The position numbers and the translations under genes are program-made. The notes below the pieces were generated by a model. The model did not search any database. It saw nothing but the letters and a program-made list of their open reading frames with translations, and was not told the DNA's origin. From Callorhinchus milii (Eukaryota), in contig NW_024704742.1 of NCBI RefSeq assembly GCF_018977255.1, positions 51,214,001-51,278,000 of the forward strand: a stretch of DNA of 64,000 nucleotides. The letters are read 5' to 3'. Positions 9,664-59,140 of the stretch are shown piece by piece; within the stretch, counting starts at the first letter, position 1, and each line of letters begins with the position of its first letter.

Positions 9664-10330
9664 TATTTTGTGAGCGAGAACATGAAACTCACTGCCGGAT
9701 AATACAGTTGAAGCAAAAATCAATCCACGACTGTTTGTGGGTGAAGGCTGATTTGGAGCATAAACACCAGAAAAGGACTGGTTTGGTCGAATGGCCAATT
9801 TCCCCGTCATATCATTCTTTGTATATCTACGTAATGAACAAGCAGAAAGGGGTGAGGCCAGGATAATGGACTCATTTAAGAAACAATTTGGTGATAGTCC
9901 AAGTACTCTGGAAGGTTAACATCAAGTGGGCTGAAGGACCTTCTTCATCCAAAACCAGTTATTATGTAATACCTGCCCTTTCACCTCCTCCCAGACCACT
10001 ATCCAAAGGCCGCAAACACAGCTTCCATATAAGACAGCGGTTTGCATGTACTACCACCATGTAGTATACTGTATCTGCTGCTCATGGTGTGGTCTCCTCT
10101 ATATTGGGGAGACTAAGCGCAGATTGGGTGACTGATTTGCAGAACACCTCCGCTCTGTACGCAAGGTCAACCCTGATCTTCTGGTCCTGCCATTTTAACA
10201 CACTTCCATTCACAGTCTGACCTCTCCATCCATGATCTCCTATGCTGTTCCAATGATCCACAACGAAAGCTTGAGGAACAGCATCTTATCTATCTGCTGG
10301 GGACCCTACAGCCCTCCGGCCTCCATAAAG

Positions 10331-10546
10331 TAAGTGAATTGACTGTATATTTGTGGGCGAAACGCGGCAGGCAATTGCGCACAGCAGTGTCCCACAAACA
10401 GTCATGGATTGAAAATGACCAATTTATTATTGTTTTGTTTTTTGGAGGGATTATTATTAGGCGTGTGGAGTAAGGAAACTTACCCAAGGTTTGCCAGGTG
10501 TCTCACTTGCAAGGCGAGTGCTCTAACCACTGAGCTACAGGACTCC
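10331..10546 (-). mobile_element. tRNA-derived SINE (3'-truncated) nested in the Penelope element
   Basis: Head on the minus strand GGAGTCCTGTAGCTCAGTGGTTAGAGCACTCGCC; body matches 18801-19101. ctccataaa occurs on both sides (10321 and 10555). Confidence 0.85.
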
Positions 10547-10880
10547 ATGTGTGACTCCATAAAAGCTCACCTTCCCCCCTCACCCTCTTTCTGTTACCAG
10601 AAGAGTTATCTTCTGTTATCATTACAATCATCACCCCAGACACTCTTTGCCTCTCTCTGGTGTGTTGCCCTGCACTATTAACACCTCTTCTCCCCACTTT
10701 TGTTTCAACCCAACCCCACTTTTGTTGTATAACCCCCCTTTTGTTTTACGCCACTATCTCCTCTTTAATCCATCAACTAAAACATTCTCTCCTTTGCCTT
10801 ACAATGTCTTATTTGCCGTCCTTGTCCTGCCTCCATCGCTCAAACTTGTCCTTAAAAACCTCTGCCTCCCAACATGCCCC

Positions 10881-10920
10881 TGCTCTGTCGAAGGGTCGTG
10901 GACCCGAAAGGTTGACTCAA
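10881..10920 (+). ncRNA. Degenerate minimal type I hammerhead ribozyme motif in the Penelope pLTR
   Basis: CTGTCGA-A-GGGTC/gtg/GACCC-GAAA-GGTT-GACTC. Two substitutions from the three-copy consensus CTGACGA-A-GGGTC/GTG/GACCC-GAAAC-GTT. Confidence 0.6.
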
Positions 10921-12680
10921 TTTCCTTTCTCCGTAGATGCTGTCTGACCTGCTGCGTTTTCCCAGCTCTCTCTGTTTTTGTTTCAGATTCCAGCATCTGC
11001 ATTATATTGTGTTTTGTACCAGTTATTATCTTCCAGCTCCCAGTTTTATATGCTGAAATTGTCCCAATGTTTCCCAGTCGTGTCAGCTCTTCCTCCCTTT
11101 GTTCTCCTGCCTCATCTTTGCATCGCTGTGTTAGAATCAACCCCACTACATCATCTTCTCATTGACAAATTTGTACAATGCAGATCAACAGCTGCAAATC
11201 AAACAAAAAATTAAATGCACAAAAATTCCTAATTTTTCAAGGTTATTTTTTTCTAATGGTTGGTTTTTATTTATTTAAAAAAACTATTTTAGTGTGTTTA
11301 GAAGTGGGTGCCTTGAGCACTAGCTTTGAATCATATCAAGACAGGAGCAGTCCCACGGGGGCCTACAGAGGTGATTTCCGATCAAGCAGCAAACCTCAGC
11401 CATAAGAAATCCCTTATGAACACTTGGAACTCAGTGTTCTCGAGCTAAAGCATTCACATCTGTCAAGAGACCACAACGCCAGCCTGAACTCCATGTCTGA
11501 TTGGAACGACAAGGTTTAAACACAAGGCTGCTCATGCATGCACAGTGTAAGCAGAAAAAGATGTGGAGGGGTTTGAGCGATTCTGGAGAAAGACACTGTT
11601 GAGGGAGAGACTTGTGAACATTAGGAGAACAAATTTAATTTTTGTGAATAAAGCCACATTAAAACTCTTGTTTTTTTAAAAAAGGAGCCCATGTTAGAAA
11701 GCATTCACACTATATAGTAATTGATACATAGATTCCCCACTGTTGGATACTAATTAATAAATAAGGATCAATGAAAGGGGATCAGGAGGTAGAGAAAGTA
11801 GGAAGCAGGAAGAACTCAGTAGAGGGTTTTTGGTGACTGATTTTTGTAACTGGTGAGCTAAAATAGAGTGTTCTACACATGTTTGTTGAGAACATAACAC
11901 CCACTACAAGTAGAATATATTATGTAAAGAAAATAAGCCAAAGCTAACTTATCCACTGGAGCAGAATAAGGACATTAATTATAGAAAATTGGGTTTCAAA
12001 TTCTTTACAGATAAAGTAGACCCAGAAAAGAGGAAATTTACAACCGAAAGTGGGTTGAATAAACCAAACCCACTATATATCGATTGATGATGGGTTAGAT
12101 TTGATTGTATTGTAACTACATTAAATTCCTGATAACTCGACCATGGTTTAACTTGCCACCATCACTTCTCATCATGCTGTCAATATCCTAGCTGCTTTTA
12201 TGTATTTATACATATGCCTAACTCATCACTCTGGATAACTTGCCACTGAACTGATTGCCCTTGGGAGTGTTGAGTTATCGGGAGTTTACTGTAGATTTCC
12301 TTTAGCCAATCGTATAGGTTATTGACAACTTTTCTGGGCATTCCTTTGCACATGGAATCATTATGTGTAACTGTGGGGTGGACTGTTCTGCAAAGGTAAC
12401 AGTGCATGAAGAAATCCACATTGGATGTGCTCTTGGCAGTTCAAACATCTGAACTCTCATTGAAGAAGCCGATACAAATACCATGTGATATTCTTTTCCG
12501 TAGTTCAGTTAATCTCTTCAATACTTTTCCTGACTTTGGGGGCTGTATAATGACCATTTAAATGCCTGAATTATTCTGCATGATACTGCAGAAGCAGTAC
12601 AAAGAGAACTAGTTCTTAAACAGCCTGACAATGCTGGTACTGGCACTCAATATACCCCACCTCATATTCTTCTGTGTGTC

Positions 12681-16506: not shown

Positions 16507-16706
16507 CAGTGGTTCAGCCATCACAACTTCAATCTTCTTCTCCGCCTGGACTGTGAATTCAGCCAAGAGACTCTTGATGACATACTCCCCAGGTTTGATG
16601 TCTGGGTCAATGGTAACGTTTGACATGATGACACTTTTCTTCTCCCAGATGGGATGAGTGCCTGTAGAAATACGGCGCCTACTCACACTGCTGACTGGTG
16701 CCGACG
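16507..16706 (-). CDS. FRYL: FRYL coding exon (200 nt), contains the commonly annotated start MSNVTIDPD (ATG at 16624-16626)
   Basis: Acceptor cttttctttctcttcccttgtag|CG, donor CTG|gtgagt. [40 protein letters not shown] is much closer to recalled FRYL ([40 protein letters not shown]) than to FRY. The 80 nt upstream of the ATG are open in the same frame. Confidence 0.96.
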
Positions 16707-17959
16707 CTACAAGGGAAGAGAAAGAAAAGTGATTCCTTATGACTGATCAACAGAAAATGAGCAACACAATTCGGTGAGTTTGTCTTAAAAGCAGGAATGG
16801 CAGTCACAATCATTAGCCAGGTGAATCCGTTTGACAAGGTAGATGTACTTTTCATTAAAAGCCATAATATATATCCTAGCATCATGACTTAATCACTCTT
16901 ATTCACGTACAAAATAAGCTGAAATGTTCAGACACCCGACTGACCAAATAAAATTAATACAATACTGAATGCTAATAAAGCATTACTTATTGTTCAGCCA
17001 AGTCAAATTAGCTCATAATACTAACAATTTTGAAATGCTTACTATGTGGGAATGAAAGGTTTGCAGGAGCGAGCTGTAGCGCTCAGCTTAGAAGCAGTAA
17101 TTTCCTACTTAATTTCAGTTGGATTCACATCTTGCTTTAAAAATGTGGGAATCTATATTGGAAATGACAGACCGTCTCACGTTCCAAAATAGAACTAGAC
17201 TTTGGGTATTGCTCTGGGAAGCCAAGTTTACCATATATTAAAAATTTGTGAATACTAAGTCTGGATAACACGTAGTACATGTAGTGAATAATGAACATAG
17301 CTTTACAATTTTAACTTTTTTGTTCGAAGATCACGTTTTCAGTTAAGGAATGGTTTACGGGTCTTTCCATTATTGTATTAAAAAAGTCAAAATGCAAAGT
17401 TGATATAGGCTGTGGATATTTTAAAAACTGACCTGGGAATTCAGGAAAATTGTTACAATTCCAGTAATATGATTAAAAAGCTTTCTGAAAAAAATTGAAG
17501 CGCTTGATGCATCTCACAATTTGTTGAGTAAGTTGTCATCTTCAAAGTTTAAGGCTATCTGTCATTTGGGGTTTTTATAATACTGTACAGTGTGCTCACA
17601 AGTCGTTCTCATCAATTCTGCAACAAATTTCAATCATAACACTTGGTGGAGCAGGAAATGTCTGTCCAGTGATTATATTGTTGCTAGGGGCAGCGTAAAG
17701 TGTTTTGGCAAATTAAGGGAATGGTAAAACAACATAATTGGCTCATCAGCAATTCATGGGTTCAAAAGGCAAGGCTTTCGATGCCACAGTAGATTAGCAG
17801 ATTCTCACACCCACAGGAGGTGCCAGACAATTCCATTTGACTCAGCTAACCCCTTCCTCCCACTGAACTCTCAGCAACCATTACATTAATTTCATAGCAG
17901 AACTTTTTAATAGTTTATTGTGTACTACTTCACTTCCCTCGCATTGTTTTACTGATATT

Positions 17960-39370: not shown

Positions 39371-39443
39371 AGCTACTACTCCAAGACTTCAGCAGAGACT
39401 TGATGCTAATTTCAAAAAACATGGAATCCTGTAGGCTTAACAT
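39371..39443 (-). CDS. FRYL: FRYL upstream first coding exon (73 nt, [24 protein letters not shown] + 1 nt)
   Basis: ATG at 39443 (ataATG, in-frame TGA upstream at 39474-39476) and donor AGCT|gtaagt. Phase 1 joins the CG of the 200-nt exon in frame. The peptide resembles the recalled human FRY N-terminus [23 protein letters not shown]. Not in the ORF track because it is short. Confidence 0.9.
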
Positions 39444-53799: not shown

Positions 53800-55045
53800 A
53801 ATTACAACAATAAAATGTATAGTGCCTTTTACGTCAGGAGGACGCCCCGAGGAGCTGGACAGTCAGTGTTTCACACCCGAGCTGAGGGTTGGGATCAGGA
53901 GGGTGTAGGATGGACGGGCGGACGGAGGGTGATCGAAGGCATGATCGAAGAGGAGGGTTTTGAAGGAGACAAGGGAGGGGGCGAGGCGCAGGGACTGCGG
54001 GATGAACTTCCAGAGGGTAAGGGCAGAGTGGCTGAACGCTCCATTTGCCAATGGTAGGGTGGGCGAGGCGGGGGACATGAAGCAGGCTGGAACTCGCTGA
54101 GCAGAGGGAGCGGGCGGGTTGGGAGGGGTGAGCGAGGCCATGGAGGGCTTTGAAGATGAGGACCAAGATCTTGAACTGTATCCTCCGTGTGATGGAAAGG
54201 CAGTAGAGTCGGGGGAGGATGGAGGTGATAGGGTCACAGAACCTGGTGTGGAAAAGGATATGGGCTGCAGAGTTCTGGATGATCTGCAGCCTATGGAGGA
54301 AAGTGTTGAGGAGGCTGACAAGCAGGGAGTTTGCATAGTCAAGCCTGGATGTTATGAAGGTATGTATGAGGGTTTCGGCGGCCTGTGGTGTGAGACAGTG
54401 GCGGAGCCGGGGGATGTTGGGGAGGTGGGGGAAGGCAGAGCGGATCATGGCATGAATGTGAGGTAGAAAGGATAATTGAGGGTCAAACAAGACCCCAAGG
54501 TTCTGGTCTGGCTCAGTGAGGTGGAGTGTGCAACCATGGATGGTGATGCCGTCAGCGCCTGAGTTGTGGAGGCGCTGACGGGAGCCAATCAGGAGAGCCT
54601 CAGTCTTGTTGACGTTCAACTGAAAAGAGTTAACTCTCATCCAGGACTTGATGTCTGACAGACATTCTGTCAGCACAGTAGTGGTCCTGGAGTCAAGGGT
54701 GGAAGCAGAGAGGTAGAGTTGGGTGCCATCCTCATACAGGTAGAAGTTGACCCCATGTCTGCGGATGATGTCACCAAGAGGGAGCATATAGATATTGAAG
54801 AGGAGGGGACCAAGGACAGAGCCCCGAGGAATGGCGCACGAGACGGTGCGGGGGCTAGAGGAGAAACCATTTGTGGAGATGAAGTGGAGACTCTGTGAGA
54901 GGGAAGATCTGAACCATTCAAAGATAGAATCATGAAGGTTGAAGTGAGAGGCGAGGAGGTGGAGGATAGAGTAGTCAACAGATCGACGGCAGCAGAGAGG
55001 TCAAGGAGGACGAGGAGGCAGAGGGAGCCCTGGTCGCAGATGGAC
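53800..55045 (-). mobile_element. L2 LINE, 5'-truncated, GC-rich
   Basis: ORF 53834-54787 (PLGDIIRRHGVNFYLYEDGTQLYL..LQIIQNSAA..IQFKILVLIFKALHGLA) and LLVLLDLSAAVD upstream. The catalytic YADD appears mutated to YEDG. Confidence 0.93.
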
Positions 55046-56040: not shown

Positions 56041-57206
56041 TTAGCACATACCTTTTCCCCTTCATTCCTCTCCTGCTCAGTTTCTGACCTCCACTGTAAA
56101 GCACTGCAAGACATTTATTCTATTTGAAGATGCCATATAAATTCAAGTTCTTCATCTAAAGTCTGAAGGCTATTTGCAGCATTAGACCAATGGGAGAAAG
56201 AATACTAATACATTGATTTTTGCCTTTAGTGAGACATTGCCACACTTATTCATGACGTCGGGGAAGGAATGTAGAAAGAAAAAAATAGCTGGTTGATGTG
56301 TGAGAAAGAAGAAGTGGTACACTTCTCAGTCAAGAACAAACCTTCTGTAGACTGACCAAGGGACAGCAATGACCTTCATCTACACCCATACACTTACAGC
56401 CTACTAGGAAAATCAGTATAGCTGTTGGAAGATAAAAGGGGAAGAAAGACCTGAATATAGTTACTAAAATACCCTGTGGTTAAATATGGTCAAGTCTCCA
56501 CTTAGACAATTCTCTTAAGCAAACCCCAAATATTGTGCAAAGTCTGGGTTTGACTCCTCCTCATTTTACTTCCTGTGGTGGATCATCACCTCCAGCTGAC
56601 AGCCCAGCTAAGATTAGGAACTCACCACATGGGAAATTCCAGCCCCAAATCTACATCCTACTGCTCTGTCTGCAGCATAGCACATCAACCACTGCACTAC
56701 TGAGCCATCTCCATTAACCAGCTTTGAAACAAGAGGCAGCTAGAACATTCAGAGGTAGTTATTGGTGCTGAAATTACATAATTCAAAATGGCAAGGAAGA
56801 CTGAGGACAACATTATTGTACATGTTAATGGGGTATCTATCCTTGCTGGAGTTCTCAACTGTCTGACAATTTATCAAACCCTGAACACATGCGCAACTTA
56901 GGGGTCAGGTTCGATCCCCAGCTTTCCTTTCTATCACACATACGTTCCCTGACCAGGATCGCTTTTTCCATATCCACTACACTGCCCACCTCCATCCGTA
57001 CCTCACAACTGACGCAGTTGAAACCCTCATCACACCTTTGTCACTCCCAGATGGACTATTCCAATGCCCTCCTCGCTAGTCTCTCCAGCTCCCTGCCTCA
57101 ATCCCTCAGCCTTACCCTTATATCTATGTTTCAATCCCATCTGAAAACCTCTCTGTGGTCACCTCCCCATTTTCCCTTGCTCAGCATCCAACCCTGCCAC
57201 TACACA

Positions 57207-57425
57207 AAGTACTGCAGATGCTAGAAATCTGAAAACAAAAACAGAAGTCGCCGGGAACATTCAGCAGGTCAGGCAGCATCCAAGGAGAAAGGAAAGTGAG
57301 TCAAGGTTTCGGGTCCACGACCCTTCGTCAGAACCGAACCACTGTTCTGACAAAGTGTCGTCGACCCAAAACATTGACTCACTTTCCTTTCTCCATAGAT
57401 GCTGCCTGACCTGCTGAGTGTTCCC
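57207..57425. mobile_element. Non-autonomous element made of two inverted Penelope terminal repeats
   Basis: 82-bp arms 57253-57334 and 57344-57425 (8 mismatches by eye, 9-nt spacer), homologous to 10881-11012. Flanked by ccctgccactacaca (57192-57206) and ccctgtcactacaca (57423-57437). Confidence 0.85.
57297..57335 (-). ncRNA. Minimal type I hammerhead ribozyme motif, best-preserved copy
   Basis: Minus strand GGTT-CTGACGA-A-GGGTC/gtg/GACCC-GAAAC-CTT-GACTC: intact CUGANGA and GAAA boxes and a 5-bp stem II. One change (G to C) from the consensus GAAACGTT. Confidence 0.68.
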
Positions 57426-57589
57426 TGTCACTACACAGTTCTCCAAGCCATTATCCTGTGTGAAGGGTACTATTTAAAGGAAGCTGATGCTGTAGTAATA
57501 CGAATTAGAACAAAATGTATCCAGGTCTACAAACATGGACACTGCATTCCAGCCATGATTGATTAAAAACTTCACTGTCTGGATACTCA

Positions 57590-58020
57590 CCGCATGAAAT
57601 TTAGTACCCCCATCACATCAGTCATTGCCAAGCTCCACTGCTCCAAATCACCGAACGGATCAATTTCAAAATCCTCTCACTCGTTTTCAAATCACTTCAT
57701 TCACTCGCACCTCCCTACCTATCCGATCTGCTTACCCCCCACTCCACCACCTGCTGCTTCTGCTCGGCTGTCTCCGGCATCCTATGCCCTCCATTCCACC
57801 ATCGGTGGTCGTGCCTTCAGCCACTACGCCCCAAAACTCTGAAACTCTTTCCCTCAATACCTCCTTCTTGCCTCCTCCCTACCTTCAAATCCTGTCTAAA
57901 GACCTTCCTTTTTGATCGTGCTTACGGTCACCTCCCCCCTCCCTCTGACTCCGCCACTGTGAAGCGCTCTGGGACACTACCCCCCATGAAGGGTCCTATA
58001 TAAATGCAAGTTGTTGTTAT
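57590..58020 (+). mobile_element. L2 3' end
   Basis: ITSVIAKLH..STIGGRAFSHYAPKL; tail tgaagggtcctatataaatgcaagttgttgtt. Confidence 0.85.
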
Positions 58021-58872
58021 CAATAGCATCATTTGAGAACTAAACTACTGACAACTAAAGTCAAACATCAGCTTCAAACGATCCTAGGTTTTCAATGTCA
58101 GACTCAACTTAAACACCAGTAAAAGAATTTCATTCAATCATATCTACACAACAGCAGGAAAATACCATTAGAACATCTAACTTACAATGCAACCTTCCAA
58201 AGAAAAAATACATCAGTCTAATAATATGCCAGTAAAATAGGTTTTCACTCTACCTTTTTTTGTCCAAGGTATATGAAATACCGATTCCCTTTGCCATTTG
58301 CTGCCCTGATAAAAACTGTGCATGTCAATGTAAATTCAGCATTATATATCGCAGTACAAGCCCCCAAAAAGTGCAACCCCTAAATCCCTGTCCAACATTT
58401 TCATTCCAGTTAAGAACAGAAACTTTTCCAGAGTCTAATGAGGCAGATGAAAATATAGAAATCACTCAAATTGGGTCAAACCGAGGTATTACGGACGTTA
58501 CAACTTCAAATGGATTCTAAATTTGGACAATAATTGGATGACAGGCACTGCTGTTTCTCGAGAGACCAAGACCTCAGTTCAGTAATGGTGTCAGTAAAAT
58601 CTTGTCAAAATCCTGTACTGCCACCTTTGGTGAACAAAATGACTGACAATCCATTAGCTTTAAATTCTACAACCTCTCACAAACAGAATTACACAATGTG
58701 TTCAATTCTTAATCTACAAATACTGTACTGTAAATAGTAACAACTAGTACAACGCCCAAAAAACTATTTTATACATAACACTACATAAATACTGTATTTT
58801 ATACTTAACATGGCTGGAAAGCAGTGCCCATGTTTATAGACCTGAATACATTTTATTCTAATTTGTATTTAC

Positions 58873-59140
58873 TACAACATCAGCTTGCATTTAAATAGTA
58901 CTCTTCACGTAGGATAATGGCTTGGAGAACTGTGTAGTGGCAGGGCTGGATGCTGAGATGGGGAGGTGACCACAGAGAGGTTTTCAGATGGGATTTAAAC
59001 ATAGATAGAAGGGGTAAGACTGAGGGACTGAGGCAGGGAGTTCGAGATTAGGGTGTAGTGACTGATGATTTGGTCCCAGGTGGTGACTCAGAGGGATCGG
59101 GGCACGTGCAAGTGTGGCTACAGCAGTGGAGTAGAGCAGA
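58873..59140 (-). mobile_element. Old L2 3' tail
   Basis: acaacatcagcttgcatttaaatagtactcttcacgtagg..gggactgaggcagggagttc, a reversed L2 tail. Confidence 0.6.

Follow-up and report, generated by a model that had tools for sequence, protein, structure and literature searches.

A head-to-head pair of repeat ends with two decayed hammerhead motifs in Callorhinchus milii, probably left by one aborted Penelope-like insertion

Within a 64,000-nucleotide window of the Callorhinchus milii genome (contig NW_024704742.1, positions 51,214,001 to 51,278,000), a short palindromic insert carries two hammerhead-like motifs on opposite strands, which raises the question of whether it is one copy of a small mobile ribozyme unit, or what is left of a single integration event that brought the motifs along. 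All positions given below are those of this window. We conclude that the insert consists of two head-to-head ends of a high-copy repeat, very probably originating from one aborted Penelope-like target-primed insertion.

With one copy of a 15-bp duplication counted in, the insert (57207-57422) is 231 bp long. It contains two inverted arms of 82 bp each, identical at 74 and different at 8 of the 82 positions: the left arm (57253-57334, minus strand), a pLTR-like end piece recognised as an inverted repeat and by comparison with family contigs, and the right arm (57344-57425, plus strand), recognised as its inverted repeat. Between them lies a 9-nt spacer (57335-57343), which has no strand of its own. 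The arms are arranged head-to-head, and the hammerhead-like core that a sequence-only reading had reported in each of them is indeed present, on the minus strand of the left arm (57300-57334) and on the plus strand of the right arm (57344-57378). The same reading had described the insert as made only of two inverted terminal repeats, which is right for the 82-bp arms and the 9-nt spacer but overlooked a 46-nt tail (57207-57252, minus strand) that is present on the left arm alone and makes the insert asymmetric. This tail aligns with the tail of a third copy at 10.9 kb, and thus belongs to the element; tail-like loose ends are also found in contigs of public runs. The right arm is tail-less, and its last three nucleotides (CCC) are shared with the adjoining copy of the duplication. 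At the centre, the spacer and the end of the left arm together form a 5-nt tandem repeat, while the last five spacer nucleotides match the sequence upstream of the 10.9-kb copy at four of five positions, and given this match the true filler may be only 4 nt. RNA from either strand is predicted to form a hairpin of -157.9 or -143.6 kcal/mol (z = -15.9 and -17.5 versus 200 shuffles, with 0/200 equally stable).

The direct repeats on either side of the insert (57192-57206 and 57423-57437, both plus strand) match at 14 of 15 positions, with a single C-to-T change in the right copy; the probability of so good a match arising by chance is about 7e-8 for any one pair of positions. When the flanks were searched against the window, 57082-57206 and 57438-57569 were found to match 59047-58931 and 58930-58798 without a break, and 58798-59047 (minus strand, about 1.5 kb away) is thus a paralogous empty site. 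It contains the 15-mer once, at 58931-58945 and identical to the left copy, which is direct evidence of target-site duplication and bears out what had been proposed for the flanking repeat. Since CCC forms both the end of the right arm and the start of the right copy, the duplication is 12-15 bp long; the target is not AT-rich. By the same flank search, the host segment around the insert (57082-57569, plus strand) is an inverted local duplicate of the empty site, differing from it by about 21 substitutions in 247 aligned bases. It interrupts a LINE remnant (56881-58018, plus strand, made up of 56881-57092 and 57604-58018) which is colinear with a copy at 44407-43700 and which we take to be L2; a related copy in the window has an RVT_1 match. 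An earlier placement of the insert in an L2 remnant was correct with regard to the LINE, but the immediate host is the local duplicate of about 250 bp. This inverted duplication consists of a LINE 3' end and flank inside another LINE remnant; its divergence (21/247) is close to that of the two arms (8/82), and the insert is located near its middle, with 125 and 132 bp on either side. Elsewhere in the window, 53834-55000 (minus strand) is a stop-free LINE reverse transcriptase remnant of 388 codons (RVT_1 match, E 7e-12), with many shorter relatives spread over the window.

The third copy of the repeat end (10882-11012, plus strand) was recognised by alignment with the insert arm and tail, and is present in a single orientation, with no clear target-site duplication and no inverted partner found. 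Its motif (10882-10916) has A6U, C15.2G and one stem I change. Upstream is a pyrimidine-rich stretch of about 300 bp (10560-10881, plus strand), adjoined by a dispersed repeat (10330-10550) with a dozen matches in the window. The last 30 nt of the pyrimidine-rich stretch resemble the majority upstream sequence of the family, and the third copy is thus longer than the arms.

The family was sampled in contigs of four of 24 public runs (X1, X2, X12 and X19, with three organism codes), which were aligned at 80% likeness to 57090-57350, a reference containing the left flank, tail, left arm and centre. The numbers of matching contigs per run were 2,263, 5,890, 10,943 and 10,742, and depth is given as summed contig depth, which is no copy number. 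Run X1 contains the left junction exactly (57141-57239) but may be the source of the window itself, so this junction is not counted as support. At 57305 (position 16.2) the family has G, giving GAAAC-GUU in 75-86% of depth across the four runs, as had been deduced from the three window copies, while the CpG-decay letter accounts for 12-22% and the letter of the window for 0.4-0.8%. Other CpG changes reach 11-16% of depth at C15.2, 7-16% at G12 and 10-15% at C11.1, as expected of copies decaying without selection. Among the 40 of 48 difference rows listed, the left arm departs from the family majority at 57260, 57281, 57283 and 57305, and the family consensus fits a minimal type I hammerhead, with the CUGANGA and GAAA-C-G-U-H core around stem II, a bulged base between 9 and 10.1, a G10.1-C11.1 pair and a palindromic 15.2-16.2. 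A bulged base before stem II, G10.1-C11.1 and palindromic 15.2-16.2 are described as features of minimal hammerheads in PMC4209133, and the earlier assignment to a minimal type I motif with a palindromic helix III remnant agrees with the family majority. Pattern scans elsewhere gave no animal copies and no matches in viral contigs, two in metagenome contigs and two in prokaryote genomes, all four of which were taken as chance; the one inspected was GC-rich and by eye had no further likeness to the repeat.

Both motifs of the insert are damaged. The cores read GAAAG-GUU at 10906, GAAAC-CUU on the minus strand at 57310 and AAAAC-AUU on the plus strand at 57368, exactly as first reported for the three window copies, although the statement that most changes are at CpG sites holds by a bare majority only (5/9 changes over the three motifs). 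The left motif, identified from its core letters and fold prediction, has a 3-bp stem I, CUGACGA, a bulged A, a 5-bp stem II and GAAAC followed by CUU (family: GUU), with a predicted cut site between 57303 and 57302 on the minus strand. Its sole difference from the family core is G16.2C at 57305, which removes the palindrome required for a dimer helix III: the computed energy of the short-motif duplex for this helix is -5.7 kcal/mol in the family form versus +2.4 kcal/mol in the form of the left motif. The right motif is broken according to arm comparison and fold prediction, with G8A (57352), G12A (57368), G16.2A (57373), a stem II mismatch (57356) and a loop change (57362). G8 and G12 have established roles in hammerhead catalysis. 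In a Penelope-like element of the anole, G8C abolishes cleavage (PMC11167929); dimer cleavage is the subject of work by Lunse et al. (via the review PMC6765202). Stem II has a probability of about 0.21 when the left motif is folded alone, and of 0.0000 in the context of the insert, whichever strand is taken and in every one of the eight co-transcriptional prefixes tried, where forcing the hammerhead shape costs 41.3 (minus) or 35.4 (plus) kcal/mol. The antisense arm is predicted to trap the sense motif in a hairpin of about 82 bp. In the head-to-head order any transcript begins with the antisense arm, and silencing is therefore predicted even for a newly made insertion. Judged by an intact core and a formable fold, as used for active hammerheads, neither copy at this locus qualifies, and the insert has likely been inert since it was formed. 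The doubts expressed earlier about present-day activity are consistent with these predictions, whereas a self-cleaving motif on both strands does not amount to a working pair, each transcript having one sense motif preceded by an antisense copy. None of the Rfam matches with E up to 10 was to a hammerhead family; the miRNA-precursor matches (best mir-641, 41.9 bits versus a gathering score of 100) were rejected, as they reflect the long hairpin only.

With regard to the genomic surroundings, the window contains a coding exon of FRYL at 16507-16707 (minus strand; best match whale shark, 82%; no Pfam or PDB match), a further exon at 3755-3699 (minus strand, by protein match), and the start of an alternative first coding exon at 39396-39443 (minus strand), which matches the N-termini of turtle and pigeon proteins and lies 17.8 kb from the insert. 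A different first exon, present in four of the ten query proteins (shark, turtle, chimpanzee), had no match in the window. Observed/expected CpG never exceeds 0.61 in any 1-kb window, so that no promoter island was located. The insert is likely inside an intron of a longer FRYL isoform. The minus strand is the FRYL coding strand by exon match, and is also that of the left motif, so the best-preserved core does lie on the FRYL sense strand, as had been noted. Within the tail, 57228-57250 (minus strand) contains a pyrimidine-rich acceptor-like AG in the coding orientation of FRYL, the next base being 57228. With a crude score of 1.15 it ranks among the best 1.1% of the 4,067 AGs on the minus strand; two real FRYL acceptors score 1.30 and 1.07.

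Three other explanations can be weighed against a single aborted insertion. The locus could be one copy of a palindromic, non-autonomous element whose transcripts are put back into the genome by Penelope proteins, the "mobile non-coding ribozyme unit" suggested earlier, for which unique centre junctions at every locus had been set as a refuting result. The clean duplication around the whole insert is in line with such a unit, and non-autonomous pLTR derivatives are known, both MRC1 (PMC8557442) and tandem retrozymes (bioRxiv 10.64898/2026.07.22.740005). In the contigs, however, depth at 57342-57350 is 0, 3.7, 85 and 112, versus 22,279-665,288 at 57324-57332 just inside the arm, so that in the four runs the depth past the centre amounts to 0-0.023% of that in the arm (the zero of X1 being no proof by itself) and is no higher than that of the left flank (5-453 at 57126-57134). 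Of 34 joints, 15 are listed; 13 of these change strand and 11 of the 13 are arm-to-arm. No two of these 11 fold-back joints have the same pair of coordinates, and each has 1-3 contigs per run; one end lies in 57325-57338 (the upper limit of which is set by the reference) and the other in 57275-57302. The centre of this locus is absent from the 15 joints listed, although contig assembly and reporting may both miss some symmetric centres. Some other fold-back joints do recur, 57280/57334 in X2, X12 and X19 and three more pairs in two runs each, but the recurring ends adjoin private mismatches of the reference (57281, 57283, 57305), which can merge different junctions, and recurrence may also reflect orthologous loci. 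Moreover, the third copy in the window is a single arm. The contigs lend no support to a high-copy family with this centre, and a low-copy one may exist; the outcome of the test for this centre goes against a propagating family, and we consider it very unlikely that the locus is a copy of such a unit. Still less probable, to the point of being remote, is that the hairpin or the left hammerhead has been kept for a role in FRYL pre-mRNA, be it cleavage, a double-stranded substrate for editing or small RNAs, or a cryptic acceptor. The better motif being on the FRYL coding strand, the very stable hairpin and the rank of the acceptor-like AG in the tail would all suit such a role, but the left motif is without its helix III palindrome and buried in the hairpin, the position inside a FRYL transcript is itself inferred, and the divergence between the arms is similar to that between the duplicated flanks and shows no trace of repair.

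Long palindromes are unstable, and the insert could also derive from a longer head-to-head Penelope insertion of which the middle was later deleted across the palindrome, leaving the two outer ends. Long inverted insertions are common among Penelope-like elements (PMC8557442, PMC3846280), and the 5-nt tandem repeat at the centre is of the kind left by error-prone joining. Such a deletion gives no reason why both arms terminate 0-5 nt from the edge of stem I, nor why all 11 listed arm-to-arm joints have one end in the narrow range bounded by the reference, and this makes it an improbable origin. A single aborted insertion remains our preferred explanation. The pattern expected for it is present, namely an inverted 5'-truncated terminal repeat in head-to-head orientation, a tail at one end only and a target-site duplication, and it bears out the Penelope-type inverted arrangement that had been recognised in the sequence. 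An inverted 5'-truncated copy with a tail at one end is described for endonuclease-bearing Penelope-like elements in PMC8557442, and Pen2a_Av provides a case with an inverted pLTR, a 31-bp tail and a 9-bp duplication (PMC3846280). The name Penelope is likely to be correct, and draws on anatomy and motif; a Pfam search in three frames over the region upstream of the 10.9-kb copy gave no match, and no RT or GIY-YIG sequence was tied to the repeat in the window.

In the proposed sequence of events for the aborted insertion, the endonuclease of the element would nick both strands 12-15 bp apart, and one 3' end would prime reverse transcription at the end of the tail. The second arm would start at the border of tail and pLTR, where CCC is common with the target, by either a second priming or fold-back copying, the latter being a self-priming route proposed in PMC3846280. 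Both copies would terminate at the 5' edge of stem I or up to 5 nt from it, and be joined with a few filler bases, the ribozyme motif being a passenger of the pLTR. In vitro, the protein of an anole Penelope-like element cuts and extends both strands and has two reverse transcription start sites which delimit the tail, and hammerhead mutants leave insertion unaffected (PMC11167929); two start sites combined with extension of both strands would yield one arm with a tail and one without. Twin priming is indistinguishable from fold-back copying here, as the arms share no visible private variant, although the four of five spacer nucleotides matching the 10.9-kb upstream sequence give a weak hint that the tail-less arm may have been copied from RNA and not from the other arm.

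The common end point of the arms, no more than 5 nt from the first base of stem I, may itself be nonrandom, with the 5' edge of stem I marking a fixed end of the RNA or cDNA, determined either by splicing or by folding of the ribozyme, an idea that we regard as doubtful and offer tentatively. In Drosophila virilis, helix I starts on its 5' side where the Penelope intron ends (PMC4209133). In all four runs, loose ends behind 57334 have AG directly before the motif on the motif strand, an acceptor-like sequence at the equivalent place, extended to CCCCAG in X1, X12 and X19; agreement among these loose ends is only 0.35-0.40, and both window copies with upstream sequence have T instead of the A of this AG. 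The pile-up of loose ends at 57333-57334 is no proof of a preferred boundary, because this is where the reference leaves the family sequence. If the idea is true, symmetric mini-palindromes are genomic footprints of priming from both target ends, and the role of hammerheads in Penelope-like elements becomes testable from insertion ends: should arm ends accumulate genome-wide at the edge of stem I, a discrete intermediate would be indicated, along with a role for the ribozyme region.

A literature search, mainly of open-access papers, gave no work on this repeat from sharks or rays, and the supplementary alignments of PMC4209133 may contain chondrichthyan motifs. The observation is correct and of an ordinary kind, the arrangement having been described between 2013 and 2021. 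As it stands it has little wider weight, being one decayed copy of a repeat with thousands of contigs per run, and its wider value is that of one data point on how Penelope elements integrate; it is also a clean teaching example, with the empty target 1.5 kb away and both junctions readable.

Compared with known systems, the insert resembles the truncated Penelope-like elements with dual minimal hammerheads on opposite strands, about 100-700 bp apart, reported by Cervera and De la Pena in 2014 (PMC4209133). The dual-motif statement in that paper concerns Schistosoma mansoni, whereas here, in a cartilaginous fish, the motifs start 9 nt apart, stem II has 5 bp, stem I has 3 bp and mutations are present in both copies. 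Non-LTR retrozymes (Li, Clavereau and Pollet, bioRxiv 10.64898/2026.07.22.740005), which are present in the one chondrichthyan sampled there, are likewise non-coding and pLTR-related with a type I hammerhead, but form head-to-tail tandems with two sense ribozymes per transcript, unlike the single sense motif here; a non-LTR retrozyme was rejected for this locus given its head-to-head layout, and there was no tandem unit among the direct repeats in 56500-58200. The complex insertions of Penelope-like elements (Arkhipova et al. 2013, PMC3846280; Craig et al. 2021, PMC8557442) share the head-to-head inverted 5'-truncated copy, the tail at one end and the short target-site duplication, and differ in that there is no ORF between the arms here, while the tail is 46 nt long versus 30-40 nt reported for such elements, and the duplication 12-15 bp versus 8-10 bp in the rotifer examples. 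Finally, Poseidon of the green anole (Frangieh et al. 2024, PMC11167929) primes without homology to the target and in vitro used an AT-rich target, in contrast to the target here, which is not AT-rich and has 3 nt in common at the tail-less junction, but its two reverse transcription starts and the cutting and extension of both strands are compatible with the combination of a tailed and a tail-less arm at this locus.
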